Below are positions 1 to 45,622 of a stretch of 64,000 nucleotides of DNA, piece by piece. Positions within the stretch are counted from its first letter, which is position 1; each line of letters opens with the position of its first letter. This DNA is from an uncultured Chryseobacterium sp. (lineage in GTDB: Bacteria > Bacteroidota > Bacteroidia > Palsa-965), in NCBI GenBank assembly GCA_966211705.1, contig CBIHOC010000010.1, forward strand, positions 8,339-72,338. The letters are read 5' to 3'. The notes under the pieces were generated by a model. That model saw only the letters and a list, made by a program, of their open reading frames with translations, was not told the DNA's origin and did no database searches. The position numbers and the translations under genes are program-made.

Positions 1-40
1 CCAAAACAAATGGTTGAAACCGGCGTGTTGTTGTAAATAT
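1..40 (-). repeat. Partial copy, cut by the window edge, of the ~100-bp cassette-boundary repeat (core AACAGCAyGC-N-GTTTTGGTATGAAGTTACGAA).
   Basis: Reverse complement reads ...aacaacacgccggtttcaaccatttgttttgg, which matches the core of the copies at 548-630 and 6325-6400. Confidence 0.45.
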
Positions 41-513
41 TATAAACTCCACTTTATAGCAGTAAGTTGTTCGTCACTAAGATAGCTTAGTGGCTTATCT
101 AAATCGGATCCTATTATTAATTTCCCGTTTTTGGCACAAGCTGCATAAATATTTGAGTCGGCGAGTATAGGATCGAGTGATGTAACCGACGGCGACGAAG
201 AGTGATCACCAAACCATACCGCTAAAGCTCCATCTTTAAATAATTCCAGACAAATCGACTCAAGAACCAAGCGCCATTTATCCGCCGAAGGCCAATGAAT
301 GAAATGGATTGCAAATGATGAGACCTTGTGCGTATCGTATTCAAATATACTCCATGCTAATTCGTAATCACCTTTATTCAATAAGCCAGAATCTAATGTT
401 TTTCTGCACGAGTCTTCCGGACGATATACGGCATAACAATATAACCCCTGTACTTCTTCCTGCCCGCCACCAGGAGCACGAAACATAATTCCCAAACTAT
501 TTTGTGCTACCAT
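40..513 (-). CDS. Hypothetical protein, 157 aa. Orphan immunity-like gene in an AT-rich cassette.
   Basis: ORF bounded by two copies of the cassette repeat. AT-rich composition is typical of toxin/immunity modules. No recognisable motif. Confidence 0.4.
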   Translation of the reverse strand: MVAQNSLGIMFRAPGGGQEEVQGLYCYAVYRPEDSCRKTLDSGLLNKGDYELAWSIFEYDTHKVSSFAIHFIHWPSADKWRLVLESICLELFKDGALAVWFGDHSSSPSVTSLDPILADSNIYAACAKNGKLIIGSDLDKPLSYLSDEQLTAIKWSL

Positions 514-547: not shown

Positions 548-630
548 TTTCATGGGTCTTGCTCTTGGCTTTTTGCTTTAGTGCTACGTAACTTCATACG
601 AAACACGTAATTGAAACCGGCATGCTGTTC
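548..630 (-). repeat. Cassette-boundary intergenic repeat, minus-orientation copy.
   Basis: Reverse complement contains aacagcatgccggtttcaattacgtgtttcgtatgaagttacgta, matching the conserved core of the other copies. Confidence 0.6.
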
Positions 631-640
631 AGAATACTTC

Positions 641-1222: not shown

Positions 1223-1762
1223 TCATTTCATGTGTATGAAAATGGCTGGAATTGCATCCGAAAGCCATATATTTTCATTTACCTTATAGAAACGAATACC
1301 GTGCGTTGAAGCTTGAACCGCTTCAATTATAAGAATGACCGGGCTCCGGGACTTTCTTTTTCCTACCAGTTCGGCATCTCCAGGCAGTCGGGATAAATGT
1401 ACATATTGACGTCCCATAGGGAGTAATCCTTTTTCTTTAATAGAATCCAGCAGCGTAGGTAACGTACCGTGGTAAAGGTTCTCCGATGGAACGGCAGCGT
1501 CAACGTGGAATTTTCCGGCTACGGAATGTCCATATATTGCCCGGATTCTATTACCTGAAATTTCATGTCGTTTTTTAGATAATGATCCGATCATTAATTC
1601 GATATCGGCCCGTGTGAGCATTGAATATTCTGAATATCCTCTCAAAGCCTGCAGCAATTGGTCAAGTAGAACCCATCCACTTTTATCCAATTCTAACTCA
1701 TACAGCCACGGTTCATGCCTTAACGCGTGTGAGATGACTTTACTCAACCTTTCAAAATCCAT
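1223..1762 (-). CDS. kptA: KptA/Tpt1-family RNA 2'-phosphotransferase homolog (ADP-ribosyltransferase fold).
   Basis: Protein shows the family motifs LSKxxSHALRHEPW...LD..GWV...L...IRA..GHS...LYHGT...I...GL....R.YVHLS. Confidence 0.7.
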   Translation of the reverse strand: MDFERLSKVISHALRHEPWLYELELDKSGWVLLDQLLQALRGYSEYSMLTRADIELMIGSLSKKRHEISGNRIRAIYGHSVAGKFHVDAAVPSENLYHGTLPTLLDSIKEKGLLPMGRQYVHLSRLPGDAELVGKRKSRSPVILIIEAVQASTHGIRFYKVNENIWLSDAIPAIFIHMK

Positions 1763-2302: not shown

Positions 2303-5300
2303 TTATTTAGTTATGACAGTTTGCGTACCAGATTGTTTAATTGAGTTAACGCCTTGTGAAAGGCCATTCCTCTTAAACTGATCGGTAAGTTGTTGTTCAA
2401 AAAACTCTTGCCCTGTTCTGTCAACAACATTCCATTGACTTCTAGGAATGTTTGCCTTTGTAAGAGCAGCAGAAGATCTGGTATTTAAAATTACAGTTTC
2501 ACCATTTCTGAAAACCACATCAATAGATACATCAGCGACCTTGATCTCTCCTGAGACTAATTGGGCCGCAACTTCGTCAGTTGTCATGCCTGAGAACTTT
2601 CCCGTTTTGCTGAAACTATTACCAAATGATTTTTGTGCCCATGTCGCATTTTCAATGTTAATTAACCCGCTTCGTTGTTCATTCCACACGGTTTTAGCCA
2701 TGTTTGCATCGTAATCCAAAAACTCATCGTTAAACTGTGATTTCGTACCCTTATAAACATTCGTCTCCACCTTCGCCGTATTCATCCACGCCTTCATACT
2801 CTGCAAATACGCTTTTGAATTCTTGAAGACTTGTAACACTTTCTGCCATTCAGCTAAAGCGCCAAGGAGCACATCAAACGATCCCTCCGCGATCATTGTT
2901 TTGCGCTGTTCGGGGGTCAGGTTTGACGTGAAAGTGCCTTCCAATATTTTTACAACACCTAAACTGGTAATCGCAAAAGAAATAAACCTGAAAAGCATGG
3001 ACCGCCCCAGGTTGCCCATTACCGTCCAGAATGCAGCCGTTATCAGTGGCAGTTCGGTCGTTATCCAGAAGAGCGCGCCTTCAACAACCCATGCGGCGGC
3101 GGCCATAATCATTTCCACCAGGGCGCCTACCAGGATCGCCACCAGGGCAACCAATGCCTCGATGAGCAGCACCAGCAGCACAATGAGCGCGATGATCGCA
3201 AGCACGAGAAGAATGATCGCGATAACAATACCTATGATCCATAAGATCGCCTCGCCTATCGCTAAAAGAATATCCCCGATGACCGAGAGGATCTGGCGGG
3301 TATAATAAGTGGCCTCCCATTCGCTGGCCAGTTGTTCCGCCTCGTCGCGGATGGCATCTTTGGTATCATTGAAGAGCTCTTCATTTTCCGCAAGCGCATC
3401 GTCAACTTTCTCTGTAATGTCTGTTTTCCCCTCGGCAAGGTCTGCTTCCCATTCAACAATGCTGTCGTTTGCTGTCTGGCGAAGCCCGGCAATGCTCTTG
3501 TTCACAATGTCCTTCATGCCGGCATTGGCCTGGTCGCCCGCCTTGGTATAGATATCAATGATCGACGCCTGGATATTTACAGACTGTGTCGAGAATTCGG
3601 TCTTTATCGTTTCCGTTCCCTTCTGAGCTTCGTCGCGCAGGCAGTCCAGCTGGTACAAAACTTCCTGCGAGGCTTCACAATACATCACCGATTTTGCGGC
3701 GACGCTCTGAACGATTTCCTCCTGCATTTCACCGGTAGACTTGACCAGCTGGTCTTCCGCCAGGTGAATGATCTGTATGCCGACATCATCCGGGCTATTG
3801 GCGACTTCGCTCTCCACGCCGGCAACCAGCTGCGCGGTTTCCTGCTTATAGTTTACAAGAGTCTGGCGGAGCTCGGCAGTACGTTTTTCTTCGTCGGTCG
3901 TGATTTCTGTAATGGCATTCGTCACCATCGCATCCAAATTCACCAGCGACTGTTGTTTCTGCATCTCCAGCTGCGCAATAACGCCTTCGCCTGATGCCAT
4001 ATAGGCAGCCAGGGGTTCTGCAGATGCATTTACCAGCGCATCGATCGACTGGTCCGCCAGGTCTCTGATGCTTTGTGCAACCTCCTCTTTATTTTCGGGT
4101 AAACTTTCTGCGGCTTCTTTCGATTCTTCCCTGAAACGTTCGGCGAGGTCGGCGGCATCCTCGTGAATTTGCTCGATCAGGGCATCATTATTTTCCTTGA
4201 TACCCTCGATGGCATCATCTCGCATTTCACCCAGGTTGTCTTCCATCCTGCCCCGGCGACCTTCAGCGTCATATTCCCGGATAAACCGGTCGATCTGTTC
4301 GGTCGTGTAACTGAACAGCTCCGAAACCTGTGTTTTCTCAATCGCCCGGACGCGTTTCTCTTCATCAACAGCGTGCTGTTCGGCCTCCTTCGCTAACCGC
4401 TCGCCTTCTTCTTCCAGCCGTTTCACTTCGCCGGCCGTCTCCAGGTCCAACCGTTCCAGCTCAGTTAACCGGAAGCCCTTGATCCTCATTTTCTCATACG
4501 CGTGCGCATCTTCCGTTTGCTTCTGGGCCGTTGCCATCTCGTTCCTGACGGCAGTTATCGCCAGATCGTATACAAGCTCCGTTTGGGCCCGTTTAATAAC
4601 GGATTCCGATTTTATTTTTTCCCGTTCAGCTGATGCAGTAATGCTAAGCTGCGCGATCTGTTCATTGATTGTCTGATCGACCTCGGTTTCCAGTTGCTGC
4701 GCTTCGGCTTTAAATGCGGCAAGCTCCTCGCGGGCGCTGGCTTTTCCTGCACGACGTTTCTTTCTTCCGCTCGTCTTCGACGCCGTTTTCAGATTTAAGG
4801 GTGCGGCCGTTTTTATCAACTCTCCTGTGCCCAGGTTTCCTTTCCCGGTCTTTTCCTTTTTCTCTCCTTTCCTTTCTGTCTTTTCTTCGTCTGTCTTTTC
4901 TTCTTCCTTTACTTTTTCTTTTTCTATGCCCTTTTTCTCCTCAGTAGTAATACCTGTCCCGGCCGGAATATTTTCAACCGTAACGTTCTCGCTTACATCC
5001 GGCGCAACCTGTTCCTCGGATAATTTAACGGATGAGGCCTGGATATACCCAAAAGCAGAAGTGGGCCCCAGCGTGCGCGCAAAGTACCATCCCGTTGCTT
5101 CGGATATATAAAGTAACGCCACGAGTTGATCAGGCTCCAGGGCTACTTCGACAACAGCATCGGCATTGTCGTTTGCTTTTAAGCCCGGACTTTCTCCTAT
5201 TACAATTCCTTTCTTCGGAGGCGTCAACATCACATAGCCCTCTTTCTCTGCCGGATCTTCCGCTTTCCGCATCACCTTCCTCCCCACTCCTCCCCCATTC

Positions 5301-5845
5301 TGCTGCGTATGCACCACCTCATGCGCCAGCAACTCCTTCCCACCCTTACTCCCCGGATCGTAATTCCCATCCTTGAAATAAATATCCTGCCCGTGCGTGA
5401 ACGCTTTCGCATTCACACTGTCCGCCATCTCGTGCGCGTTGCTGCCGGTGTGGATTTTCACATCGCTCAAATCCGCCCCCATCTTCCCGCCGATGTCCTG
5501 CTGCACGTTCTCCGGCAATGATTGTCCGCTGCCTTTGCTGCTGTTGAGCTGGCGCTGCAAACCTTCCGGCGCGTGCAACGTATCGCCTTCGGATTTCGAT
5601 TGCACGGAATTATTCGCAGATGAAAGCTGGCTGATGTTCGCGTCGCCGCCATCAACAACTTTGCGCGCGATCATATCCGCTTCCTGCTCCTGCGCGTCGC
5701 CGGGTTGTGAAACCTCAAGCTTCGCTTTGATCGACGCATTTTCCATCGCCATTTCCTCTTCTTCCTGGCGCATGACAAGCTCGCGCCGGCGACGGATCGT
5801 TTCGGCCTTCTCGTTCTTCGTATGGATCTTATTATAAAAACTCAT
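2303..5845 (-). CDS. DUF4157 (HExxH zincin-like) N-terminal domain eCIS-cargo or polymorphic-toxin protein, 1180 aa. Has a long coiled-coil/KE-rich region, a hydrophobic segment and a variable AT-rich C-terminal domain.
   Basis: N-terminus is near-identical to that of 6735-9500. Contains the motif LLAHEVVHTQQ. The C-terminal ~200 codons are AT-rich. Confidence 0.75.
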   Translation of the reverse strand: MSFYNKIHTKNEKAETIRRRRELVMRQEEEEMAMENASIKAKLEVSQPGDAQEQEADMIARKVVDGGDANISQLSSANNSVQSKSEGDTLHAPEGLQRQLNSSKGSGQSLPENVQQDIGGKMGADLSDVKIHTGSNAHEMADSVNAKAFTHGQDIYFKDGNYDPGSKGGKELLAHEVVHTQQNGGGVGRKVMRKAEDPAEKEGYVMLTPPKKGIVIGESPGLKANDNADAVVEVALEPDQLVALLYISEATGWYFARTLGPTSAFGYIQASSVKLSEEQVAPDVSENVTVENIPAGTGITTEEKKGIEKEKVKEEEKTDEEKTERKGEKKEKTGKGNLGTGELIKTAAPLNLKTASKTSGRKKRRAGKASAREELAAFKAEAQQLETEVDQTINEQIAQLSITASAEREKIKSESVIKRAQTELVYDLAITAVRNEMATAQKQTEDAHAYEKMRIKGFRLTELERLDLETAGEVKRLEEEGERLAKEAEQHAVDEEKRVRAIEKTQVSELFSYTTEQIDRFIREYDAEGRRGRMEDNLGEMRDDAIEGIKENNDALIEQIHEDAADLAERFREESKEAAESLPENKEEVAQSIRDLADQSIDALVNASAEPLAAYMASGEGVIAQLEMQKQQSLVNLDAMVTNAITEITTDEEKRTAELRQTLVNYKQETAQLVAGVESEVANSPDDVGIQIIHLAEDQLVKSTGEMQEEIVQSVAAKSVMYCEASQEVLYQLDCLRDEAQKGTETIKTEFSTQSVNIQASIIDIYTKAGDQANAGMKDIVNKSIAGLRQTANDSIVEWEADLAEGKTDITEKVDDALAENEELFNDTKDAIRDEAEQLASEWEATYYTRQILSVIGDILLAIGEAILWIIGIVIAIILLVLAIIALIVLLVLLIEALVALVAILVGALVEMIMAAAAWVVEGALFWITTELPLITAAFWTVMGNLGRSMLFRFISFAITSLGVVKILEGTFTSNLTPEQRKTMIAEGSFDVLLGALAEWQKVLQVFKNSKAYLQSMKAWMNTAKVETNVYKGTKSQFNDEFLDYDANMAKTVWNEQRSGLINIENATWAQKSFGNSFSKTGKFSGMTTDEVAAQLVSGEIKVADVSIDVVFRNGETVILNTRSSAALTKANIPRSQWNVVDRTGQEFFEQQLTDQFKRNGLSQGVNSIKQSGTQTVITK

Positions 5846-6290
5846 GATTCAAAAAGTCCAAAAAATTTAAAACCCAAACGCCGCCCCAACTCACAATCCC
5901 AGGGAGGTTTGATACCTCGTACATGATTACCCCTTTGGGATTTGGAATTTTTGGATTTATTTTTTCTATGGCGTTCTGTTCTCCTTCGCCAGCTCGCGGC
6001 GTATGCCTTTCACAAGATCGATGCCGCCGATCTCCGAAAGTCCTTTCACCGTGGCTTCCACGCAGCAGTATTTCAAAATGTTGCTTACGTTGGCGCCGGT
6101 CAATTCGTACTTCGATAATTTGTCGAACGAGATGTTTTCCGCATAGCTGAACCCTTCGGGCAACGCCTGTTTCCACAGCAGCATGCGCTCTTCTTTTGCC
6201 GGGCGCGGGAAATAGATCATGGCCTGGAAGCGGCGCGTCATGGCGGGATCGAGGTTGTGCTTCAGGTTGGTGGCGAGGATGGTGAGGCCG
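5300..6290. repeat. About 1-kb segmental duplication, copy A of the region at about 8955-9917: toxin 5' end plus intergenic region plus ATPase 3' end.
   Basis: Encoded N-terminal ~180 aa of both toxins and the ATPase C-terminal 91 aa are near-identical. Alignment is interrupted by an about 32-bp indel in the intergenic part and diverges at about 6287. Confidence 0.7.
5966..6287 (-). pseudogene. Truncated 3' fragment of an eCIS AAA ATPase gene, remnant of the segmental duplication.
   Basis: 91-aa ORF is identical to the C-terminus of the 9589-11151 product (MTRRFQAMIYFPRPAKEERMLLWKQ...KENRTP). Homology ends abruptly at about 6287. Confidence 0.6.
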
Positions 6291-6324
6291 GGGTAATTAA
6301 ATCGGGAGTTGGTTTTATGTTTGA

Positions 6325-6400
6325 CTTTATGCTAAAGCGCTTCGTAACTTCATACCAAAACACGTTGGTTAAAACCGGCGTGCTGTTCTGAAGTTCATTT
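6325..6400 (-). repeat. Cassette-boundary intergenic repeat, minus-orientation copy.
   Basis: Reverse complement contains aacagcacgccggttttaaccaacgtgttttggtatgaagttacgaagcgc. Confidence 0.6.
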
Positions 6401-6727
6401 CTTTTCATTCAGAAAGCTTCTCCAGTCTTCAAGCAATTGAATAAGCTCCACGGTTGAAATTTCTGTTTCGCTCTCTCCAAAATCATAGAATATTTTTGAT
6501 TTGTCCTTATAACTGTCGATGATGCAATAATCTGAACCTCCAAAAGAATACATCTCCATTTCGCCCTCTGCTACTTTCCGGACATTCTGGAGAACGTCCT
6601 CAACTCCTTCTATTGTTTGCAAAAAGCCGGAAGACAAGTCATAGAGCATTTCATAAGGGGGCTCAACATTTATCAATAGGATGCGTTCGTCAAGAACATT
6701 TTTTTCACTGAAATGGTATTTTATCAT
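6395..6727 (-). CDS. Hypothetical protein, 110 aa. Probable immunity protein for the adjacent EndoU-like toxin.
   Basis: Lies 8 bp downstream of the toxin stop on the same strand. Small, AT-rich. Confidence 0.5.
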   Translation of the reverse strand: MIKYHFSEKNVLDERILLINVEPPYEMLYDLSSGFLQTIEGVEDVLQNVRKVAEGEMEMYSFGGSDYCIIDSYKDKSKIFYDFGESETEISTVELIQLLEDWRSFLNEKK

Positions 6728-6734: not shown

Positions 6735-9500
6735 TTAGAATTTAGGGAATGCAGAGATAATATTACCGCTTTTATCTAAATACATTTCAATCTTGGTACC
6801 ATCAGAAGCCGTCCCGAGCCAGGTATTGCCCTTTACAAAAATCTTATTGTTAAAGGCATGTGTTATTTCCTCCAGCACTTTTTGCTTATTCCAAGTGGGC
6901 CGAAAAAAGGACGAGTAGCCACCATTTGCAGTTTTACGGACCCAGTTGCCGGCTGCATCTTTCACTTCTACAATGGCCTTAAAAACCCCTTTGGGGCCAA
7001 TCTTTATTGTTCCGGGAACGATTCTCGCTGTACCACCTCTGATTGCATCAATATGATGTACTCCGGTCGCTTTTCCAGCTTTAATTTCACCTTCAAAAAT
7101 ATGCTTAATTGTTTTGGGCGTGATCTTACTCGTGATTTTTTTGACTTGGGTCACCACCTTCTTTGTCTTCGTCACCACTTTCTTCGCCGGTACAATCCCC
7201 TTCTTGAACGCCTTCTTCAACGGTCCGAGGCCTGGCATCTTTTTAGTCATTTTAGTGAACTTCGATACGATCTTCATCACCATCGTCATCACCTTGCTCA
7301 GCCACGTTACCGCTTTACCTCCCCATTTGATCGCAGTGATCGAGCCCCAGGAAACGACCGCCATTATTACCTCGGCAATGATGTAACCGATGAGCCAGCC
7401 CCAGTTGTAACCCGACACCCAAGGGTCGGGGGAGCTCAGCTTTTCGCCGAACGCGCTCATTTCTTTCCCGATCTCCTCGACAACCGCAGAAGCAATTTCC
7501 TTCATCTGTGCCCAGGTGAGGTTGCTCACAAATTCCCATATCTCTTTTGCCTTCTGGACGCCGTCACCGAAAAAGAGACTGTAGAGTACCTTAAAGGGCA
7601 TTGCCACCAGGTTGTAGATCGCAACGATCGTATCCCAGATGGACTCGAGGAACCCGACGACCAGTCCGCCGACGAAAGCAAGGCCGAACTGGATGCCCCA
7701 CCAGATAGATTCCAATATTTTCTTGACGGACTTCCAAATCTCGCCCGTGTAAGAACCCGAAGAAATGGTGCCTTTCTTTTCCAGCTCTATAATGTATTCT
7801 TTCGAAGGCATCCAGATCGTCATGCCTTTGATCAGGATCGGGTCGTGGTGGTACTGGTCGTTCTCTTCAAACCATCCGGGTGAGCTGGTATTTTTGATTT
7901 GCTTCAGGCGCCCTGAGATTCTATTGGCATAGACCACGCCGTTCACGTACATCCGTTTGTCCTCCTTGTCGCGCAGGCTGTAGTACTGCTTCACGAGCTG
8001 GGATAACGTCTGGCCCTTTTCGATGGTGTACAGGGTGGCATTAGGTTCCGGCGGGTTGAAAGCCAGCGCATGCTCTTCCACCCAGCCGCTTTTCGCGCCC
8101 GACTGGATAAAATACCAGCCGTTGTACTCCTTCGTCACGCTCACCCGCTCGTTCTGGTACACCATGAAACGATAGCCCAGCTCGCCGATGCCTTCCTGGC
8201 GCGGGATGGGTGTGAATTTCACCTTGAATTCGTTCTGGGCGACGATGCCGGTCTTCTTCACGTCATTACCGCGGCGGCCGAGCATGTACTGCACATCTTC
8301 GTCGTTGCGGATGATCGGCGTGAAGCCGCCCATGCGCTGCACAACTCCGGTGGCGGTTGCGATATATTCCTGGTTAAGCGCCACGAGGTGCAGCAGCTTC
8401 TGCGTGTCCGCTTCGCTGACCCCGGCGATGAGGTTGTTGATCGATGATGATGAGCTGGTGAACTGTCCTTTCGTATAGAACCACTTCTTCTCCGTATTGA
8501 TCCCTTTGATCTCGTATTCCAGCATGGCGCCGCTGCCCACGACGAGCAGGAGCTGGTGCTCCGACAGGTTGTCAAGCCCCGCAAGAGGCGCAGGAGCGGT
8601 GGTCGCATTGACGTTAATGTAGATCTCCCCACCGTCCTGCGGCTCGATCTTGATCTGCCGGCTGTAGCGGATATTCCGCATCGGGACAGGGTTGATCGGG
8701 CGGGTAGAGAACTCCGGGTCGAACGCTACGCTGGGGGCTTTTTGCCCGGCCGTATTCTTTTGTATACCGACGAAATTGTTCGACACCGAAATTTTCCCGA
8801 GCGGTGTAGCTGCCACGAGACGATAGCTGTCGGCAATCCCCCACACCATGGGCGAATCGAAAACATTCTTGAGCTCACTGAGCGGCTTGGGGTCTGTCTG
8901 GCGCTGAATTTTCCGCCCCACGCCATTTTGATTCTGCTGCGCCTGCCCGGCATTCTGCTGCGTATGCACAACCTCATGCGCCAGCAACTCCTTCCCACCC
9001 TTGCTCCCCGGATCATAATTCCCATCCTTGAAATAAATATCCTGTCCGTGCGTGAACGCCTTTGCATTCACACTGTCCGCCATCTCGTGCGCGTTGCTGC
9101 CGGTGTGGATTTTCACGTCGCTCAAATCCGCCCCCATCTTCCCGCCGATGTCCTGCTGCACATTCTCCGGCAACGATTGCCCGTTTCCTTTGCTGCTGTC
9201 GAGCTGGCGCTGCAAACCTTCCGGCGCACGCAACGTGTCGCCTTCAGATTTGGATTGCACGGAGCTGCTTGCAGGCGAAAGCTGGCTGATGTTCGCATCG
9301 CCGCCGTCGACCACTTTCCGCGCGATCATGTCTGCTTCCTGCTCCTGCGCGTCGCCGGGTTGCGAAACCTCAAGCTTCGCTTTGATCGACGCATTTTCCA
9401 TCGCCATTTCCTCTTCTTCCTGGCGCATGACAAGCTCGCGCCGGCGACGGATCGTTTCGGCCTTCTCGTTCTTCGTATGGATCTTATTATAAAAACTCAT
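6735..9500 (-). CDS. DUF4157 N-terminal domain toxin, 921 aa from MSFYNK. Has a central hydrophobic junction segment and a C-terminal domain resembling bacterial EndoU-type RNase toxins.
   Basis: Contains HExxH (LLAHEVVHTQQ). C-terminal HIFEGEIKAGKATGVHHIDAIRGG...GVFKAIVEVKD..GNWVRK...NGGYSSFFRPTWNKQKVLEEI matches the EndoU_bacteria signature as I recall it. Start chosen at the second ATG (9500) by homology to 2303-5845. Confidence 0.75.
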   Translation of the reverse strand: MSFYNKIHTKNEKAETIRRRRELVMRQEEEEMAMENASIKAKLEVSQPGDAQEQEADMIARKVVDGGDANISQLSPASSSVQSKSEGDTLRAPEGLQRQLDSSKGNGQSLPENVQQDIGGKMGADLSDVKIHTGSNAHEMADSVNAKAFTHGQDIYFKDGNYDPGSKGGKELLAHEVVHTQQNAGQAQQNQNGVGRKIQRQTDPKPLSELKNVFDSPMVWGIADSYRLVAATPLGKISVSNNFVGIQKNTAGQKAPSVAFDPEFSTRPINPVPMRNIRYSRQIKIEPQDGGEIYINVNATTAPAPLAGLDNLSEHQLLLVVGSGAMLEYEIKGINTEKKWFYTKGQFTSSSSSINNLIAGVSEADTQKLLHLVALNQEYIATATGVVQRMGGFTPIIRNDEDVQYMLGRRGNDVKKTGIVAQNEFKVKFTPIPRQEGIGELGYRFMVYQNERVSVTKEYNGWYFIQSGAKSGWVEEHALAFNPPEPNATLYTIEKGQTLSQLVKQYYSLRDKEDKRMYVNGVVYANRISGRLKQIKNTSSPGWFEENDQYHHDPILIKGMTIWMPSKEYIIELEKKGTISSGSYTGEIWKSVKKILESIWWGIQFGLAFVGGLVVGFLESIWDTIVAIYNLVAMPFKVLYSLFFGDGVQKAKEIWEFVSNLTWAQMKEIASAVVEEIGKEMSAFGEKLSSPDPWVSGYNWGWLIGYIIAEVIMAVVSWGSITAIKWGGKAVTWLSKVMTMVMKIVSKFTKMTKKMPGLGPLKKAFKKGIVPAKKVVTKTKKVVTQVKKITSKITPKTIKHIFEGEIKAGKATGVHHIDAIRGGTARIVPGTIKIGPKGVFKAIVEVKDAAGNWVRKTANGGYSSFFRPTWNKQKVLEEITHAFNNKIFVKGNTWLGTASDGTKIEMYLDKSGNIISAFPKF

Positions 9501-9588
9501 GCTTAAAAATTCCAAATATTACAAAACCCAAATCCCACCTCGTACATGATTTACCCTTTGGGAATTTGGAATTTCCGCTTTGTTTTTT

Positions 9589-11151
9589 CTATGGCGTCCT
9601 GTTCTCCTTCGCCAGCTCGCGGCGTATGCCTTTCACAAGGTCGATGCCGCCGATCTCCGAAAGTCCTTTCACCGTGGCTTCCACGCAACAGTATTTCAAA
9701 ATGTTGCTCACATTGGCGCCGGTCAATTCGTACTTCGATAATTTGTCGAACGAGATGTTTTCCGCATAGCTGAACCCTTCGGGCAACGCCTGTTTCCACA
9801 GCAGCATGCGCTCTTCTTTTGCCGGGCGCGGGAAATAGATCATGGCCTGGAAGCGGCGCGTCATGGCGGGATCGAGGTTGTGCTTCAGGTTGGTGGCGAG
9901 GATGGTGAGGCCGGGATAATCTTCCATCTTTTGCAGCAAATACGCCACCTCGAGGTTGGCCCATTTGTCGTTGGAGGAATTGACCTCGGTGCGCTTGGTG
10001 AACAGCGCGTCGGCTTCGTCGAAGAAGAGAATGCAGTCTTTGTTCTCGGAACGGTCGAACAGGAGCGCGAGGTTTTTTTCCGTTTCGCCGATGTATTTGG
10101 AGACAACCATGGACAGGTCGATGCGGAAGACGTCTTTCCCGAACGTTTTTCCCATCAGCGTCGCGGTCAACGTTTTTCCCGTTCCCGGAGGGCCGAAGAA
10201 GAGGCAGGGAAAACCACGTTTGATCTTTCTCCGCGTGTTGAGCGTTTTCGATGTGGCCACCCAGTTCATCACTTCCTGCACTTCCTGCCGTGTGTGCTTG
10301 TTCAGCACGAGGTCGTCCCACTCGAGATCGGTGCGGGCGAGCGTTGCGGGGAACGCGCGGCCGAAATCGGGACGGGGCTTTTCGCTGCACAATAAATACT
10401 GCACATATTCCGGGGCGAGCGCCACGACATGGTTTCGCTCGTTGGTTTCATCGTCGGTGTGGCTGACGGCGCGGAACCCGAGCACCTGCTCGCGCACGAG
10501 CACGCTCTGTTTCAGCGAAAGCTGGTAGAACACCATGTTCGTGATGTCTTCGCCGGCGAGCATGTACAGCGCGGTCTGCAGCGTGGGCACGAAGCTGGTG
10601 AACGTGGCGTCGAAATAGCCGCCCATTTCAGGATATTCCACTTTATACACCCGGCTATCGCTGCGCAGGCGTTTTGTAAAAACTTCGGGACTTACATGCG
10701 GCAGCAAACCGCAGAGCAGCAGCAAACGTTCGGCAGGCGAAAGCGCGAAGCGGTTGACAAGGTCGGCGTACGCGGATTTTTTTCCTTCGAGGTCCGGAAG
10801 CTGCAGCGTGGAAAAGAACGTCACCTCGCCGGCTTCACCTTTCAGCCGCTTCAGGCGGTTGTCAAGCAATGCCTGGAACCATTCCATCTCCTCGATAATG
10901 ATCTTCGAATTTTCAGAAACGACGCCGGCATCGAGAAGATGTTTCCGTTCGCGTTCATAACCGTTGAGCTTCACTTTTTCCTGTTCGTATTCCATAGTTC
11001 GTCGCGTTACACTTTTCAGCACGATAAAGATGGCGAACGAAAGAGGCAATCGCCCCGGACAGTTTGGTGCCAAAAAATTTGTTAAAACGGGGTATGTGCA
11101 ACTAGTCAACCTGCTGATTACCAATAGCAAAGTCCGGACAGTAAAATGCAA
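9589..11151 (-). CDS. eCIS-associated AAA+ ATPase (Afp15/Pvc15-like).
   Basis: Walker A GPPGTGKT, Walker B ILFFDEAD, and sensor/arginine finger segments. Paralog of 48574-49923. Sits at the edge of the eCIS structural operon. Confidence 0.8.
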   Translation of the reverse strand: MHFTVRTLLLVISRLTSCTYPVLTNFLAPNCPGRLPLSFAIFIVLKSVTRRTMEYEQEKVKLNGYERERKHLLDAGVVSENSKIIIEEMEWFQALLDNRLKRLKGEAGEVTFFSTLQLPDLEGKKSAYADLVNRFALSPAERLLLLCGLLPHVSPEVFTKRLRSDSRVYKVEYPEMGGYFDATFTSFVPTLQTALYMLAGEDITNMVFYQLSLKQSVLVREQVLGFRAVSHTDDETNERNHVVALAPEYVQYLLCSEKPRPDFGRAFPATLARTDLEWDDLVLNKHTRQEVQEVMNWVATSKTLNTRRKIKRGFPCLFFGPPGTGKTLTATLMGKTFGKDVFRIDLSMVVSKYIGETEKNLALLFDRSENKDCILFFDEADALFTKRTEVNSSNDKWANLEVAYLLQKMEDYPGLTILATNLKHNLDPAMTRRFQAMIYFPRPAKEERMLLWKQALPEGFSYAENISFDKLSKYELTGANVSNILKYCCVEATVKGLSEIGGIDLVKGIRRELAKENRTP

Positions 11152-11528: not shown

Positions 11529-13355
11529 ATGGCCGTCCTACCCAGGAATATTCTCAAAACGTTTTTCCAGAAAAACGATATACCGACCGAATCGCAATTT
11601 GGTTCGTTGATCGATTCGGCGCTTAGCCTGACTGAAGATAGAAAACTTCTCGGGCTGAAAAAATACGATCCTTCTGTTACGTATGCTGTCGGCGACTCGG
11701 CCGTGAAAGACGGGCTTATTTACGAAGCCATCGCGGTGACCACAGGACCATTCGACAGCACAAAATGGCAGAAGCTCACGTTCGGCCCTGTCAACTACGT
11801 CGGTACATGGGACGCGACGGCAAACACCCCCACGCTGGTCAGCTCAACCGGCAACAAAGGCGATTATTATGTCGTGAGTACCGCCGGCACCACCAACCTT
11901 GACGGGATCAATGACTGGCAGGTGCGCGACTGGGTCGTGTTCAACGGATCGGTCTGGCAAAAGGTCGATAACTCGGAAGGCCAGGTACCGGCTTCGCTCG
12001 TTACGTACGACAATTCGGTAAGCGGCATGCTGGCGGTTGACGTACAGGATGCGATCGATGAGCTCGACGTGCGTCTCGATACCGTGGAAACGGACATCGG
12101 CACGCTGCAGTCCGGGAAGGAGCCCGCGAACGTGAATATCCAGGGGCACATTGCTACAGTCGGTAACCCGCACGGAACAACGAAGACCGATCTCGGCCTC
12201 GGCAATGTCGACAACACCTCCGATGCCGCAAAGCCTGTGAGCACAGCACAGCAGGCCGCGCTCGATCTCAAGACCGATCTTACTTCATTCAATGCGCACA
12301 CCGGCGATACCGCCAACCCGCACGCGGTTACAAAAGCGCAGGTCGGACTCGGCAACGCCGACAACACATCGGATGCGAACAAGCCGGTGAGCACTGCGCA
12401 GCAGGCTGCGCTCGACCTGAAGACAGACCTCACTGCGTTCAACGTGCATACCGGCGATACGGCCAACCCGCACGCCGTCACCAAAGCGCAGGTCGGGCTT
12501 GTAAACGCCGACAACACATCGGATGCCGATAAACCGGTGAGCACCGCGCAGCAGTCGGCGCTCAACCTGAAAACTGATCTTACCACTTTCAACGCGCATA
12601 CCGGCAATACTTCCAACCCGCACGCCGTCACCAAAGCACAGGTCGGGCTGGGCAACGCCGACAATACTTCGGACGCCGACAAACCGGTGAGCACCGCGCA
12701 GCAGTCGGCGCTCGACCTGAAAACAGATCTGACCTCGTTCACAGCGCACACGGGAAACACATCGAACCCGCACGCGGTCACGAAGGCGCAGGTCGGTCTC
12801 GGCAATGCGGACAACACATCCGATGCGAACAAGCCCGTGAGCACTGCGCAGCAGGCTGCGCTCGACCTGAAAACGGACCTCACGGCATTCACCGCGCACA
12901 CAGGGAATACGTCAAACCCTCACGCTGTTACCAAAACGCAGGTCGGCCTCGGCAACGTGACCGACGATCAGCAGCAGTCGCATAAATTTTATTTTTTCGA
13001 TTCTCCTTCCGAAGCGACGTTGTTCGTCAATACCACCACCGGGTTTATCCCCACGATCACGATGGGCTTTACGCCTGCGGTGGCCGGCGACTATCTCGTG
13101 GAGTGGTATTACGAGATCGGCTCCGATTCCGGGAATGGTAATGTTGAGGGCCAGGTAACGCTCGACAGCACAGAGATCGGCCTTCACTCCGAAAAAATCG
13201 ACATCGCGGACACGTTGATCTCCGTGTCCGGTTTTAAAAAAGAAACCCTGACAGCTGCCGCGCATACGCTTGACGTAAAGTTCAGGAAGATCTCAGGCGC
13301 AGCAGGCGTAGAGATCTGGCTCAAGCGGCCGCGTGTCAAAATCACTAAAGTATAA
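11529..13355 (+). CDS. eCIS tail fiber protein (Afp13-like) with 6-7 tandem 40-aa phage-tail-fibre repeats.
   Basis: Repeats of NTSDAxKPVSTAQQxALDLKTDLTxFxAHTGxTxNPHAVTKAQVGLGNAD, which resemble the Pfam Phage_fiber_2 repeat. First gene of the structural operon. Confidence 0.7.
   Translation: MAVLPRNILKTFFQKNDIPTESQFGSLIDSALSLTEDRKLLGLKKYDPSVTYAVGDSAVKDGLIYEAIAVTTGPFDSTKWQKLTFGPVNYVGTWDATANTPTLVSSTGNKGDYYVVSTAGTTNLDGINDWQVRDWVVFNGSVWQKVDNSEGQVPASLVTYDNSVSGMLAVDVQDAIDELDVRLDTVETDIGTLQSGKEPANVNIQGHIATVGNPHGTTKTDLGLGNVDNTSDAAKPVSTAQQAALDLKTDLTSFNAHTGDTANPHAVTKAQVGLGNADNTSDANKPVSTAQQAALDLKTDLTAFNVHTGDTANPHAVTKAQVGLVNADNTSDADKPVSTAQQSALNLKTDLTTFNAHTGNTSNPHAVTKAQVGLGNADNTSDADKPVSTAQQSALDLKTDLTSFTAHTGNTSNPHAVTKAQVGLGNADNTSDANKPVSTAQQAALDLKTDLTAFTAHTGNTSNPHAVTKTQVGLGNVTDDQQQSHKFYFFDSPSEATLFVNTTTGFIPTITMGFTPAVAGDYLVEWYYEIGSDSGNGNVEGQVTLDSTEIGLHSEKIDIADTLISVSGFKKETLTAAAHTLDVKFRKISGAAGVEIWLKRPRVKITKV
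12190..12960 (+). repeat. About 120-bp tandem repeats, about 6.4 copies, inside the tail-fiber CDS.
   Basis: Recurrent ...gcgcaggtcgg(a/t)ctcggcaa(c/t)gc(c/g)gacaacac(a/t)tc(g/c)ga(t/c)gc... units encoding the 40-aa fibre repeat. Confidence 0.7.
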
Positions 13356-36624: not shown

Positions 36625-37445
36625 ATGTTCGCTGAACCGCAGCAGAAGAACGTATCGCAATTGCAATCCCCGCAGTCGCAATCGCCCCACATCCAGGCAA
36701 AGCTGGAAGTAGGCGCCAAAGACGACCCGCAGGAGAAAGAAGCAGATGCCGTCGCCGACTCGGTGATGCGCATGAGCGAAAGTTCCGGCGCTGCAGGCGA
36801 TGCAACCGGCGTAAAGGCGCAGCAGGAAAGCCCCATGGCCCGCCTGCTGCGCCGTCATCCCGACGCGCCACGCCCGCAAATCATCCACCGTTTGGCCGAC
36901 GCGCCGAAAGCCCAGCCTGTTCAACGCGCGCCCGCAGCAATACAAGGCCCCGCATCACCCGCCCTCCGCAAAAAAGAAGGCGAAGAAAACGCCATTGCGA
37001 AAGCGCCGGAGCATGGGGCAGTGCTGCGAATGCACGATGCAGACGAAGAAACGGTGCAGAAGAAAGAGGATGAGGAAAGTGTGATGAAGATGGACGATGA
37101 GGAAGGTCTGCAGAAGAAAGACGAAGAAGAGAGCGTGATGAAAATGGACGACGGCGGAAAAGGCGGCACCGCTCCGGCTGCTGTCGAGCAAGGCATTCAG
37201 TCCGGCAAAGGCCAGGGAAACCCGCTCCCTGAAAATGTACAGCAGGACATCGGCGGAAAGATGGGCGCGGATTTGAGTGATGTGCGTGTGCATACGGGAA
37301 GCAACGCGCATGAGATGTCCACCGCGATCAACGCGAAAGCGTTCACGCACGGGCAGGATGTGTATTTCAAGAACGGAAATTATGATACCTCGAGCAGTTC
37401 GGGGAAGAAGTTATTGACGCACGAGCTGACGCATACGCAGCAGCA
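36625..37445 (+). repeat. About 820-bp segment duplicated at about 97% identity at 42313-43133. Covers the shared N-terminal part of toxin genes 3 and 4.
   Basis: Direct comparison of the two nucleotide stretches shows only scattered substitutions from the ATG through the HExxH motif. Confidence 0.8.
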
Positions 37446-39261
37446 GAAGGCGCCCGGCGTGCAAAGGAAGGTGCAGCGGGGGTTCTGGGGGGATGTCTGG
37501 GAAGGTGTTAAATCGGTCGGAAACTTTGTATACGAAAATACCGGCCTCAAGACGATCGTCGAAACCGGCAAAGACATTTATCACTGGGCCGTTGATTCCC
37601 CCGAAGAGTTCCAGGCCTACATGCAGGGGAAGCTCAAAGATAAGATCGACGAGATCAGGGCCCAGAAAGAGCCGACCGTGATGTTTACCGCCAAATACTG
37701 GGCAATGAAAACCATTGCCATCGCGATGAATCCGCTGTCGATCTTCGCGATGCCTTCCACGCAGGCCATCTGGGATATTTTCCGGCAGGCCAAGCTGGGT
37801 TATTATGAGCACCTCTACAACCTGGGCAACGAATACGTCCTTAAGAAGAATGAAGACACCGGTAAAATGGAGCGCGTGAAAAACGAAAGCTTCAAAAAGG
37901 GTGGATATGCCGAGGTGTTCTCGAACCAGATGCGCAACATGCTCGATCCCCGCTTTATGCTGGGCGAAGTGGTCGGCATCTTTAAAGGCATCGGCGGCTG
38001 GTTCGTCGACCTGTGGGAGATGATCAAATGGTTCGGTGAAATGATCTGGGGCGGCATCAAAGGCACCTGGAACCTGCTTGTCAATTTTGAGCCGCCTGCA
38101 TTTATGACACAAGCTGCCGATCTCGCAACATCAGCCGGTGCCTGGTTCAAAGAGAACGGGAAAGCAATCATGGAAGAGCTCGGCATGCTGCTCCAGAATC
38201 CCACCAAGCTCAAGGAGGTCCTCGCTGACCTGAGAGCTGCGATCAAAACCGGCGCAGAGGGCCTCGCGTACGGAGCCGGCCAGGGCATGGCCGCGCTGCA
38301 GGTGAAGATCATGAGCATGAGCGCTTACGACCAGGGCGAGATGGTGGGCAAAGCCATCGGCTACCTCATCCCCGAGATCATCATCGCCGTGTTTAGCGGC
38401 ACCATCGTGAACTGGATCAAAGGCGGCGTGAAAGCGCTGCAGGTTTTCGGCTCGGCGCTCAAAGGCCTCAAAGCCATCAAGGCGCTCATGAACGGCGCGC
38501 GCGGCGTGATGAATGCTTTTGAGAAAATGGGCCGCCTGTTCAAGGCCCTTGGCAGCAAGATCGGCGGCGCACTCGGCAAGGCGTTCGACAATGTGATGGA
38601 TTTCTTCAAAGGGATTTTGAAATGGGGAGATGAGGCGCCGGCAGGTGCGGTGGATGATGTGCATGCGCCGCATGACCGGACGCCGGACGGGCCGGATGGG
38701 CCGAGGAATGATGGGCCGGATGGGCCGAAGAATAAGCCCGACGCCGACAACGCTATGCGGAATTTAGCGTACGGAGAGATGGTAGCGGAAGTGATACAGA
38801 GTAATGCAGCGGATGAACCGATCGCGAAGTTCAAGAGCGATATTTATAAAATAAAACGTCATTTCCCGATCGTTAAGGCATTCAAGTTTGTTCCGGATGG
38901 AGCTGGAGGATTATACGTTTATATGAAAGCTAGCCCATGGCGACTTGGAGGGCATAAGAAGGCACCCAAATATTCTCCCACTTCAAAACACCAAAAAGGA
39001 GGATGGGGAACTGAAATGGATCTAGACGACATAACAGCTCAACATGTGTTAGACAACTCAACGGTACTCGGAAAACAGAGCTATGGCTATCATAATGGAA
39101 AAATATATGAATTCCAATATGATAATGTCGGCGGATGGCATGGGTATCCTATACCGTCAATTCAACTTATTTCAAAATCAGGAGGCACGAAAATTTTGAG
39201 GCAGTGGTTAAAAGATGGTATCTTGTCAAAACCTGATTATAATAAGTTAATTGGTGGGTGA
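36625..39261 (+). CDS. DUF4157 N-terminal domain eCIS cargo toxin, 878 aa, with the conserved hydrophobic junction segment and an AT-rich variable C-terminal toxin domain.
   Basis: Contains HExxH (LLTHELTHTQQQ). N-terminal ~270 aa are near-identical to those of 42313-45096. Has the junction motif GYLIPEIIIAVFSGTIVNWIKGG. GC content drops sharply at about 38760. Confidence 0.75.
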   Translation: MFAEPQQKNVSQLQSPQSQSPHIQAKLEVGAKDDPQEKEADAVADSVMRMSESSGAAGDATGVKAQQESPMARLLRRHPDAPRPQIIHRLADAPKAQPVQRAPAAIQGPASPALRKKEGEENAIAKAPEHGAVLRMHDADEETVQKKEDEESVMKMDDEEGLQKKDEEESVMKMDDGGKGGTAPAAVEQGIQSGKGQGNPLPENVQQDIGGKMGADLSDVRVHTGSNAHEMSTAINAKAFTHGQDVYFKNGNYDTSSSSGKKLLTHELTHTQQQKAPGVQRKVQRGFWGDVWEGVKSVGNFVYENTGLKTIVETGKDIYHWAVDSPEEFQAYMQGKLKDKIDEIRAQKEPTVMFTAKYWAMKTIAIAMNPLSIFAMPSTQAIWDIFRQAKLGYYEHLYNLGNEYVLKKNEDTGKMERVKNESFKKGGYAEVFSNQMRNMLDPRFMLGEVVGIFKGIGGWFVDLWEMIKWFGEMIWGGIKGTWNLLVNFEPPAFMTQAADLATSAGAWFKENGKAIMEELGMLLQNPTKLKEVLADLRAAIKTGAEGLAYGAGQGMAALQVKIMSMSAYDQGEMVGKAIGYLIPEIIIAVFSGTIVNWIKGGVKALQVFGSALKGLKAIKALMNGARGVMNAFEKMGRLFKALGSKIGGALGKAFDNVMDFFKGILKWGDEAPAGAVDDVHAPHDRTPDGPDGPRNDGPDGPKNKPDADNAMRNLAYGEMVAEVIQSNAADEPIAKFKSDIYKIKRHFPIVKAFKFVPDGAGGLYVYMKASPWRLGGHKKAPKYSPTSKHQKGGWGTEMDLDDITAQHVLDNSTVLGKQSYGYHNGKIYEFQYDNVGGWHGYPIPSIQLISKSGGTKILRQWLKDGILSKPDYNKLIGG

Positions 39262-39823
39262 CATGGAAAAGTTATACTTCGAACTCACACCTTGTGAGCA
39301 TCCATATGCAAATGAACCCAGCTCAAAAGCTGATGCCTGGAGTATAATTGCAATGAAGCACCTTTCTCTAGGTAAAGCTCATGCTATTTTTGAATGGCAA
39401 TGGGATGCCTTTCCGGTACTTGAGTGGTTTTTTACAACTAAGGAAGCTATGCTAACAGAAAACTTTCCATTTAATACGATTGAAGGAAGGTGTATTGCGG
39501 AGTGCAGGACGAAGCTGTATGCCTATGATTCATTTTTAAACGAGAAGGAAGAAGACGATTACCTCCTCAGCTTAGAAAACTATTTTTCAAAACACAGCTT
39601 TACGCTTCCGGGCACTCCTTTGCCGTTATTTTATATCGGCTTATTCAAGGGCAAAGGCGACATCTCTTTTTACAATTCAACAAATGAGCTTGAATACTAT
39701 TCCTTTAATATGCCATCGTTTATTAACGACACGGAAGAAACTATTAATATTTTTCTTATGGAATGGAAAAAGGAGTACGCACGGGATCTGGGATTAGAGA
39801 GATTAGCAACCATACTTAAATAA
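39251..39823 (+). CDS. Hypothetical protein, 190 aa. Probable cognate immunity protein.
   Basis: Overlaps the toxin stop. AT-rich. Followed by the cassette repeat. Confidence 0.5.
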   Translation: MVGDMEKLYFELTPCEHPYANEPSSKADAWSIIAMKHLSLGKAHAIFEWQWDAFPVLEWFFTTKEAMLTENFPFNTIEGRCIAECRTKLYAYDSFLNEKEEDDYLLSLENYFSKHSFTLPGTPLPLFYIGLFKGKGDISFYNSTNELEYYSFNMPSFINDTEETINIFLMEWKKEYARDLGLERLATILK

Positions 39824-39870
39824 CAGGGCTGAATACAGCGAAGTAAGCGGGAAGGGATGCAGACTCGATT

Positions 39871-39995
39871 TTCACTCAGGCAGGCGCCGCGGGAAAACAG
39901 CATGCGATTAGAATCGCATGTTTTGGTATGAAGTTACGAACGGCTTTCCCGAAAATCAATTTTAATTTTCAGCACACGAGCAGAGTGAAAAGGTC
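39871..39995 (+). repeat. Cassette-boundary intergenic repeat, plus-orientation copy 1.
   Basis: ttcactcaggcaggcgccgcgggaaaacagcatgcgattagaatcgcatgttttggtatgaagttacgaacggctttcccgaaaatcaattttaattttcagcacacg, with an internal near-palindrome. Confidence 0.75.
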
Positions 39996-40001
39996 GGTTA
40001 C

Positions 40002-40976
40002 GTGATCGGCTACCTCATCCCCGAGATCATCATCGCCGTGTTTAGCGGCACCATCGTGAACTGGATCAAAGGCGGCGTGAAAGCGCTGCAGGTTTTCGGC
40101 TCGGCGCTCAAAGGCCTCAAAGCCATCAAGGCGCTCATGAACGGCGCGCGCGGCGTGATGAATGCTTTTGAGAAAATGGGCCGCCTGTTCAAGGCCCTTG
40201 GCAGCAAGATCGGCGGCGCACTCGGCAAGGCGTTCGACAATGTGATGGATTTCTTCAAAGGGATTTTGAAATGGGGCGATGAGGCGCCGGCGGTTGCGGT
40301 GGATGATGTGCATGCGCCGCATGACCGGACGCCGGATGGGCCGGATGGGAAGAAGAATAAGAATGATCGTGATGATAATGAGTCAAAAGCAGCGGAACTG
40401 CTAAAGGCAAAAGCAATCTTAGAGTTTAATAATAAAAGTGGAAATTTAGGATTATTAAAGACGCAGCTTTCAGTCTTAGATTTTCGTTCTGATTTAATTA
40501 AACGATTTGAATATCGGCCTGATGGAGACGATGTGAATGTTTACATGATTGCCAGTGAAAATTATGTAGGAAAATATTCTGTCAGAGCACGTAGGAGCAA
40601 TCCGAATTCTCCAAAAAGGACAATTAAACACAAAGGAATAGATCATACGGGAGGAAGGATAGTAAAAAAGACTAAAACAAAAGTAGATTATATAATGAAG
40701 GACAGCTCAGAAGCAATGAATTGGGCAAGAAAACAACTTGGACATAATACAAAAAAAATATATGAAAATGGGAAACTAGTAGGCTGGGAAAATGTAACAA
40801 ATGGCAATAAGGTAAAATGGGGGCATTATGATTGGTACCAAGGAGGTGGTTCGTCAAACTTTCCACATCTAAACTATGAGTTCAATGGGAGTAAACTGAA
40901 AGGGCATTTATTTCTTGAAGATAAAATTCATAATACAGGCCTAATGGATGATTTTATTGCGTATTTTGATCTTTAA
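40002..40976 (+). CDS. Orphan toxin C-terminal cassette, 324 aa. Begins with the conserved junction segment, then a distinct AT-rich C-terminal toxin domain.
   Basis: First about 115 aa (GYLIPEIIIAVFSG...WGDEAPA) are near-identical to residues about 574-690 of the 36625-39261 product, then diverge. Confidence 0.55.
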   Translation: MIGYLIPEIIIAVFSGTIVNWIKGGVKALQVFGSALKGLKAIKALMNGARGVMNAFEKMGRLFKALGSKIGGALGKAFDNVMDFFKGILKWGDEAPAVAVDDVHAPHDRTPDGPDGKKNKNDRDDNESKAAELLKAKAILEFNNKSGNLGLLKTQLSVLDFRSDLIKRFEYRPDGDDVNVYMIASENYVGKYSVRARRSNPNSPKRTIKHKGIDHTGGRIVKKTKTKVDYIMKDSSEAMNWARKQLGHNTKKIYENGKLVGWENVTNGNKVKWGHYDWYQGGGSSNFPHLNYEFNGSKLKGHLFLEDKIHNTGLMDDFIAYFDL

Positions 40977-40979
40977 ATA

Positions 40980-41396
40980 TTGTCCATGGATATCTCATCA
41001 ATAATTCCGAAGAGCGGAGACTCCATTCTTATGGCAACTTCGTGGAATATGGGTATTCTCCATATTGAATTAACACTGGGAGAAACAGATGAGCGTATAC
41101 ATTTATCTATAGCAACAGATCGGGTCTTTTTTTCGCCAAAAGTGTATGATAGCGGATCTGATAAGACATGCTTTATTGAATTTAAGCTCCTTGAAGAAAT
41201 AATCCCGCCACAAAACACACTATATCTTCCACCTTCGGATTTTCATTTACTCATGGAGCAAATCAATAATCAGTTTCATATTGCATATGGGCTTAAAAAG
41301 AGCGAATATGGTTATTTTTTTTCCCTCAGAGGTTATCAAAGACTGGTGGCTTGTGTTATTAAAAACCACAATGATATAAAGGTGTCTGGGATTTAA
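40980..41396 (+). CDS. Hypothetical protein, 138 aa. Probable immunity protein for the orphan cassette.
   Basis: Starts 4 bp after the cassette stop. AT-rich. Confidence 0.5.
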   Translation: MSMDISSIIPKSGDSILMATSWNMGILHIELTLGETDERIHLSIATDRVFFSPKVYDSGSDKTCFIEFKLLEEIIPPQNTLYLPPSDFHLLMEQINNQFHIAYGLKKSEYGYFFSLRGYQRLVACVIKNHNDIKVSGI

Positions 41397-41405
41397 AAAT
41401 AGTGC

Positions 41406-45621: not shown

Positions 45622-45622
45622 T

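Follow-up and report, generated by a model that had tools for sequence, protein, structure and literature searches.

The locus examined here raises the question of why a segment of ∼1 kb, running from the end of an AAA+ ATPase gene into a toxin gene, occurs twice, and by what route the second copy came to head a different toxin. The window, i.e., the whole 64,000-nucleotide (nt) stretch of contig CBIHOC010000010.1 (uncultured Chryseobacterium sp.) that was analyzed, carries a complete extracellular contractile injection system (eCIS) locus, in which two genes for PF13699 (eCIS_core/DUF4157) proteins, toxins A and B, lie on the minus strand beside the gene of ATPase 1. We consider it probable that two full-length cargo-toxin genes, arranged in tandem downstream of the eCIS loader ATPase within a polymorphic-toxin array, have the repeat as their common 5′ module, and that homologous recombination brought the repeat copies together. 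Direct observations bear on this reading: the repeat with its domain content, the mosaic identity and the substitution pattern of its copies, a second assembly with a different junction, and a distant locus that is built in a similar way.

Self-BLAST of the window aligned positions 5296 to 6297 with 8951 to 9920 as a direct repeat of 91.5% identity over 1003 columns (51 mismatches, 5 gap openings, E=0, 1434 bits), and the same pair was recovered by a repeat-finding scan (families D2 and D3) and by MAFFT alignment. The original prediction, which had read a duplication of ∼1 kb (5300 to 6290 versus 8955 to 9917) from the sequence, is thereby confirmed in its central claim. All genes of the repeat region lie on the minus strand.

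8951 to 9920, minus strand: repeat copy A, with the ATPase 3′ end (9920 to 9589), spacer A (9588 to 9501), and toxin A codons 1 to 183
5296 to 6297, minus strand: repeat copy B, with the truncated ATPase 3′ end (6297 to 5966), spacer B (5965 to 5846), and toxin B codons 1 to 183

Each copy thus consists of the last 110 ATPase codons plus the stop, a spacer, and the 183 toxin codons with the PF13699 domain, and it terminates just past the HExxH motif (LAHEVVHTQQN), where the Pfam match to eCIS_core also ends. The toxin part agrees with the ∼180 codons claimed earlier. The 91 ATPase codons of the same claim correspond to an open reading frame (ORF) from an internal ATG at 6241, whereas the homology itself spans 110 codons. 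The spacers measure 88 nt (A) and 120 nt (B); the announced indel of ∼32 bp is present, but as 31 extra nt in spacer B (5883 to 5913) and a separate 1-nt indel. Selection-driven conservation alone was ruled out as the cause of the repeat because non-coding DNA and synonymous sites are also common to the copies. A 26-nt block, CCCAAAGGG(G)TAATCATGTACGAGGT, is kept in the otherwise diverged spacers (window positions 5914 to 5965 and 9537 to 9588, minus strand) and may be a regulatory element.

The genes joined by the repeat are the following.

9589 to 11151, minus strand: AAA+ ATPase 1, putative eCIS cargo loader (Pvc15/Afp15/Alg15-like), with PF00004 AAA at E=5.9e-28
5966 to 6297, minus strand: ATPase C-terminal fragment (lid region, 110 codons), containing the 91-codon ORF from ATG 6241
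6735 to 9500, minus strand: toxin A, 921 amino acids (aa) from ATG 9500, with PF13699 at E=2.5e-27 and a C-terminal EndoU domain, PF14436, at E=1.4e-22
2303 to 5845, minus strand: toxin B, 1180 aa from ATG 5845, with PF13699 at E=1e-27

The full ATPase 1 gene encodes a complete AAA+ module with Walker A/B and sensor 1 and matches NCBIfam classic-clade AAA models. Public gene calls start it at 10995 (468 aa), and the exact 468-aa product was found on other contigs. The fragment, called as gene P0241 on a contig of 140,562 bp, has neither Walker A nor Walker B because it starts only ∼9 codons upstream of the ILATN sensor-1 motif; it aligns solely to the C-terminal lid of AAA models, and its 91-codon ORF begins downstream of the motif. 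Toxins A and B are 90.7% identical over residues 1 to 204/198 and unrelated beyond. In toxin A, a charged N-terminal region is followed by the PF13699 domain, a linker, hydrophobic segments, and the EndoU nuclease domain, which is found in A only. In toxin B, the shared N-terminal module leads into a long coiled-coil-like region, a hydrophobic block (∼residues 850 to 960), and a C-terminal domain. Two different C-terminal toxins accordingly share an upstream region and an N-terminal module, as the original prediction had proposed with its new C-terminal toxin under the copied upstream region. PF13699 scores in the window toxins reach 95 to 98 bits (cut-off, 22), the HEVVH motif is present, and an N-terminal region precedes the domain.

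Identity between the two copies is a mosaic. The ATPase piece opens with 204 nt (9916 to 9713) at 100% identity and carries 5 scattered differences in its remainder. The spacers differ by 19 substitutions over 88 aligned positions (∼22%), besides their indels. A second identical stretch then covers the gene starts:

9501 to 9364 and 5846 to 5709, minus strand: identical tract ("139-nt") spanning the first codons of both toxin genes

Farther on, toxin codons 46 to 113 are ∼84% identical, and identity amounts to 92 to 98% from there to the domain end. Substitutions are also unevenly distributed by kind. Within the 110 codons of the ATPase fragment, all 6 internal differences are synonymous and none is nonsynonymous, with one D/N change at the boundary codon; the 91-codon ORF specifies the same amino acids as the full ATPase copy (nonsynonymous divergence, dN=0; synonymous divergence, dS=0.089; 5 synonymous differences). 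The toxin N-terminal region has 30 differing codons, 24 of them synonymous and 6 nonsynonymous. To judge from these sequences, a pseudogene decaying at ∼20% neutral divergence should show several nonsynonymous changes, and the fragment has none. There are three possible origins of the synonymous-only pattern: the copies may have diverged within functional genes of different lineages and been joined recently, recombination may repeatedly overwrite the fragment from the functional ATPase gene, or selection may act on the fragment itself. Under all three, duplication in place followed by decay is the least likely history.

An alternative junction was found with the exact toxin B protein, which recovered contig L014 (European Nucleotide Archive ERZ27336834, 17.6 kb, coverage 4.8). 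In this contig, the full ATPase gene is directly followed by toxin B. All diagnostic sites of L014 are A-type as far as 9502, and from 9363/5708 on they are B-type; because the switch falls inside the 139-nt identical tract, the contig reads as a one-crossover product. It is devoid of 3,654 nt, which comprise the toxin A variable part, the downstream gene immA, the cassette-end repeat r1, the ATPase fragment, and spacer B. Elsewhere, it is at least 99.9% identical to the window, with 5 private single-nucleotide polymorphisms (SNPs), 1 in the ATPase gene and 4 clustered in a KptA gene; divergence between samples of the same population is ≤0.05%. Contig L020 (ERZ27336836) ends at 9364, the last base before the first site that discriminates A from B, as expected if both continuations exist in that sample. 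The end of contig L019 (Logan SRR18156183), at 1601, adjoins one of the KptA haplotype SNPs, which are for this reason taken as population variants and not as errors. A 12-kb Logan contig holds P0246, i.e., toxin B called from Met192, just beyond the repeat end. From these contig sequences, we conclude that the population holds at least two haplotypes, with and without the toxin A cassette, that would be interconvertible by a single homologous crossover. The toxin repertoire hence differs between near-identical strains (L014, a short-read assembly, versus the window). These sequences are read most simply as a loop-out deletion from the tandem form, but integration of a circular cassette into the single form would yield them as well. 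When the 183-aa N-terminal module was used as a protein query, the only matches were short relatives at ≤55% identity and did not even include toxin B, so that no view of the repertoire of close strains was obtained.

The two cassettes end in a short repeat, whose six copies share a core.

6321 to 6392, minus strand: r1, with core TATGAAGTTACG at 6354 to 6343, 23 nt upstream of the ATPase-fragment junction
565 to 634, minus strand: r2, with core at 587 to 598, after the toxin B cassette; 80.6% identical to r1 over 72 nt (E=2e-9)
39927, 41458, 42206, and 45682, plus strand: c1 to c4, after four cassettes of a plus-strand array

The r1/r2 match substantiates the cassette repeat that had been noticed ahead of the second copy. 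The 12-mer core occurs six times in 64 kb, invariant, always within one of the two toxin arrays and always in toxin-gene orientation (∼0.008 copies expected by chance), and sits within a repeat of 70 to 120 nt that closes toxin/immunity cassettes. A hairpin and then TTTT precede it in r1, c1, and c4, and the 5′ arm is deleted in c2 and c3. RNAalifold and single-sequence folds of the repeat copies revealed no conserved structure, some copies folding into a hairpin plus U-run. Rfam holds no family for the repeat, either at gathering thresholds over the whole window or at E≤1 over 39.7 to 46.1 kb, and scans of viral contigs for the core and for the ATPase gave no matches. The repeat may serve as terminator and downstream homology arm. 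An integron- or shufflon-type mechanism was rejected because no recombinase was found and all repeats are direct; no integrase or invertase Pfam match was obtained in the 40 window ORFs scanned, which include nearly all long ones.

The history that we propose starts from an array with a constant part (ATPase 3′ end, spacer, and N-terminal loading region with the DUF4157 domain) and a variable part (low-GC C-terminal toxin plus immunity gene), each cassette being closed by the short conserved repeat. Homologous recombination would have united the copies, likeliest by single-crossover gain or loss of a ∼3.65-kb cassette with the content that L014 lacks (toxin A variable part, immunity gene, r1, ATPase fragment, and spacer B), and the copies would then have swapped patches by gene conversion. 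The repeat would render the cassette unstable, in keeping with the haplotype of the same population that is without it. Since both toxins share the N-terminal signal, the same AAA+ loader could pack both, by analogy with work on AlgoCIS, an eCIS from marine Algoriphagus machipongonensis. Suppositions in this scheme are the order of events (gain or loss), a circular intermediate, toxin loading, and transcription of toxin B either from the copied spacer, as a second expression site in the sense of the original prediction, or from r1.

Several findings weigh against the proposed history. L014 comes from a 4.8× short-read assembly, in which a mis-join across the 139-nt identical tract is possible. 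Exact-protein look-ups of toxin A, the immA product, and the 91-aa ORF returned one contig only (140,562 bp, presumably the window's own). As to the comparison with relatives lacking the duplication, which the original prediction had suggested, L014 is without the toxin A cassette, but a scan of the GTDB representative set gave no close genome for a with/without comparison (best ATPase identity, 61%). The Bacteroidota-type TAnnTTTG promoter element is absent from spacers A and B, and sigma-70-like matches place the −10 hexamer within the toxin ORF, leaving no recognizable promoter in either spacer. Finally, the toxin B C-terminal domain has no Pfam, NCBIfam, or PDB sequence match.

Among other explanations, the one that survives best, and is still unlikely, takes the ATPase C-terminal piece for a functional AAA+ lid mini-gene (∼91 to 101 aa) that serves, and travels with, the toxin behind it, e.g., as a loader adaptor or as a chaperone of the N-terminal signal. 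On this view, what looks like a duplication would be a mini-ORF and a toxin conserved together as one module. Besides the dN of zero in the window ORF, it draws on a parallel locus. The only full-length relative of toxin A, P0122 (47% identical), is encoded on Joint Genome Institute contig L021, in synteny with the window. There, an ATPase with 47% identity to ATPase 1 is faced by a divergent repeat-protein gene; next in order are a PF13699 toxin of 1734 aa, a small ORF, a C-terminal ATPase fragment with a spacer behind it, an EndoU toxin, a pair of small ORFs, an orphan EndoU module (95.6% identical over 389 nt), and a 110-aa immA homologue (58% identical). The L021 fragment is an intact 101-codon ORF from a Met homologous to the start of the window 91-codon ORF, with an in-frame 8-codon insertion; the ∼15 codons upstream of this Met are decayed, with stop codons before them. 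It is 54% identical to its own ATPase, which is its closest full-length relative among 1.84 billion cluster representatives, and its divergence by codon position (0.38, 0.24, 0.57) resembles that of functional ATPase pairs. Random mutation to L021-like divergence kept the frame open in only 3 to 9% of simulations (P of no stop, 0.03 to 0.09). Given the L021 sequence, there is a slim chance that the ATPase piece is kept as a small gene. However, the same signals are expected if recombination repeatedly overwrites fragments from functional ATPase genes or imports them with such genes; the piece has no Walker A or Walker B motif; and the two examples stand alone, a screen of 80 metagenome loci plus a protein search having added no further internal ATPase fragment. 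Nearly all short hits were contig-end truncations, as with the match P0244, which lies at a contig end. A wider version of the mini-gene idea, equally unlikely, is that the truncated copy encodes a separate AAA+ lid domain, which would travel with a cargo toxin in one module (lid ORF, spacer, and loading signal), could tune or license how the full-length ATPase loads this toxin, and, with the TATGAAGTTACG cassette-end repeat, might form a homologous-recombination platform that swaps eCIS cargo between strains.

The metagenomic sequence that comes closest to ATPase 1 (72% identity across the C-terminal 153 aa) is L022 (FTIX01017589.1, positions 1 to 1190). Here, a GIY-YIG-like ORF separates the ATPase stop from a toxin gene of the same N-terminal type.

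Recent tandem duplication in place, with the C-terminal toxin replaced in one copy and the ATPase fragment decaying, was the favored explanation of the original prediction and now appears improbable. The copies are indeed direct, adjacent, and co-oriented, the second begins inside the ATPase gene, and r1 and r2 stand at both cassette ends, as a duplicated unit from the ATPase 3′ end to the repeat predicts. Nevertheless, simple duplication and decay does not fit because of the identity mosaic and the fragment dN of zero. Tracts at 100% identity lie beside regions diverged by 16 to 22%, and neutral-site divergence ranges from 0% in two tracts to ∼20% in the spacer and codons 46 to 113, against the ≤0.05% found between samples of one population. 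The 5 differences in the fragment's unconverted 3′ part are all synonymous, and the variable parts have foreign GC content. What does hold from that prediction is the footprint of recombination in the toxin locus, borne out by the mosaic and by the alternative junction. As to the alleged ATPase pseudogene, a truncated copy does lie ahead of toxin B, but the term pseudogene is uncertain in view of the purely synonymous divergence and of the intact ORF kept in L021.

An assembly artefact, in which the window chains two strain variants (ATPase-toxin A and ATPase-toxin B) or L014 itself is at fault, is very unlikely: the window is apparently a metagenome assembly, the toxin A protein is on one contig only, another assembly joins the ATPase directly to toxin B, and sister assemblies have coverages of 4 to 5×, but the copies differ by 8.5% plus indels and are hence no collapsed or expanded identical repeat, the junction of r1 with ATPase codon 411 (6297/6298) joins unrelated sequences over only ∼4 nt of microhomology, which no k-mer graph could make up, L020 breaks off precisely where A and B branch, L014 has its own SNP haplotype with one SNP position also ending an independent Logan contig, and the distant L021 shares the architecture.

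Other features of the A and B cassettes are the following.

6395 to 6727, minus strand: candidate immunity gene immA, 110 aa, directly following the EndoU toxin A; GC 0.375 versus ∼0.55 in the core
Downstream of toxin B, minus strand: tail of the toxin B cassette, with a 153-aa ORF, KptA/Tpt1, and a 162-aa ORF, followed by r2

The immA product has no Pfam or NCBIfam match and resembles no known immunity family; its homologues (58% and 38% identical) adjoin both EndoU modules of L021. Toxin C-terminal domains and the small ORFs downstream have GC contents of 0.37 to 0.43, against 0.54 to 0.59 in core and housekeeping genes. The KptA/Tpt1 RNA 2′-phosphotransferase gene lies two genes downstream of toxin B (1223 to 1762, minus strand; 7326 to 7865 in L014). 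In the haplotype without toxin A, four clustered G>T/C>A variants (1600 to 1647) split it. Past r2 there is an ORF of 148 to 157 aa (window positions 40 to 513, minus strand; L014 region 8602 to 9465), and in L014 an 89-aa Barstar-family gene lies downstream of the 148-aa ORF, beyond the window start. Together they are probably an orphan barnase-like toxin/immunity module.

The eCIS locus around these cassettes has a plus-strand structural operon from 11529 to ∼52000, which encodes Pvc16_N, two sheath paralogues, gp19-type tubes, CIS_tube-LysM, a VgrG-like spike, gp25, baseplate J, a second AAA ATPase, and a CIS tape measure. Four PF13699 proteins are present: A and B on the minus strand beside ATPase 1, and C and D on the plus strand, flanked by the structural genes on one side and ATPase 2 on the other.

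36625 to 48000, plus strand: second polymorphic-toxin array, with toxins C and D, orphan C-terminal modules, and four cassette-end repeat copies

Toxins C and D are 96.9% identical over the first 835 nt (95% over 288 residues) and unrelated past the PF13699 domain. At least three orphan C-terminal modules (40002 to 40976, from ∼41507 on, and from ∼45704 on) share 85 to 383 nt with the toxin C interior at 92 to 98%; the first matches it over 383 nt at 95%, and 45704 to 45895 at 98%. The two AAA+ ATPases (9589 to 11151, minus strand; 48574 to 49923, plus strand) are 41.5% identical. The toxin array beside each of them has a separate N-terminal family (A/B or C/D), and ATPases and toxins may form cognate loader-cargo pairs within one eCIS locus. 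The 608-aa protein that heads the operon (ORF 11529 to 13355) contains five to six tandem repeats of 150 nt (50 aa) at 12165 to 12958 (plus strand; 76 to 84% identical), and its homologue gene in L021 carries the same repeats.

eCIS particles are being engineered as protein-delivery tools, and the unit exchanged in this natural sequence is a loading signal with DUF4157, a spacer, and the end of the loader gene. Presence and absence of a cassette was seen here between near-identical strains. The PF13699 domain end and the cassette-end repeat offer boundaries for cargo swaps, and the ATPase lid ORF is a candidate accessory gene. On the sequence side, the toxin genes have the marks of eCIS cargo, adjoining an eCIS structural operon and encoding PF13699 with HExxH; DUF4157 is N-terminal in many eCIS toxins (Geller et al., PMC8213781).

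As in the payload regions of the Photorhabdus virulence cassette (PVC) and antifeeding prophage (Afp) systems (Pvc15/Afp15; PMC11495950), payload genes cluster beside an AAA ATPase, and N-terminal signals are common to the payloads of one system. PVC payloads are without DUF4157, unlike the window toxins, and no description of an ATPase-fragment duplication was found in the literature consulted on PVC/Afp payload regions. Another close likeness is AlgoCIS, also a Bacteroidota eCIS with two cargos (Cgo1 and Cgo2) that have similar N-terminal sequences, DUF4157, and different C-termini, and with the AAA+ ATPase Alg15 (PMC8894135; bioRxiv 10.64898/2026.05.27.728243). In its cargos, a disordered loading sequence at the N-terminus is followed by DUF4157 and then by a C-terminal domain that varies, and loading needs Alg15 (bioRxiv 10.64898/2026.05.27.728243). 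Unlike in AlgoCIS, the N-terminal modules described here are 91% identical in DNA, non-coding positions included, a truncated loader copy lies between the cargo genes, and this one locus has two ATPases and two N-terminal families.

The framework of polymorphic toxin systems with orphan modules (Rhs, CdiA, MafB) is said to go back to Zhang and Aravind in 2012. Orphan modules and recombination in such systems have been reviewed (PMC4436062), and in Rhs, recombination between repeats deletes intervening cassettes (Koskiniemi 2014, as cited in PMC4436062). The array described here shows shared N-termini with unrelated C-termini, orphan modules, and a strain-variable repertoire. Like Rhs, CdiA, and MafB, it combines a constant N-terminal trafficking region with variable C-terminal toxins and a downstream, here candidate, immunity gene; its orphan C-terminal modules have short homology to the main gene, its content varies among strains, and recombination between repeats would delete cassettes. 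It departs from these systems in that the repeat unit takes in, upstream of the toxin gene, the spacer and part of the neighboring loader ATPase gene, a conserved short repeat closes each cassette, and delivery, to judge from the genes, would be by an eCIS instead of type V/VI secretion. In contrast to Rhs and CdiA, moreover, the array has two complete tandem genes that can be started separately, and not one full gene plus orphans. The locus carries the familiar logic of polymorphic toxins into an eCIS, without a new principle, by what is an ordinary bacterial route to toxin diversification.

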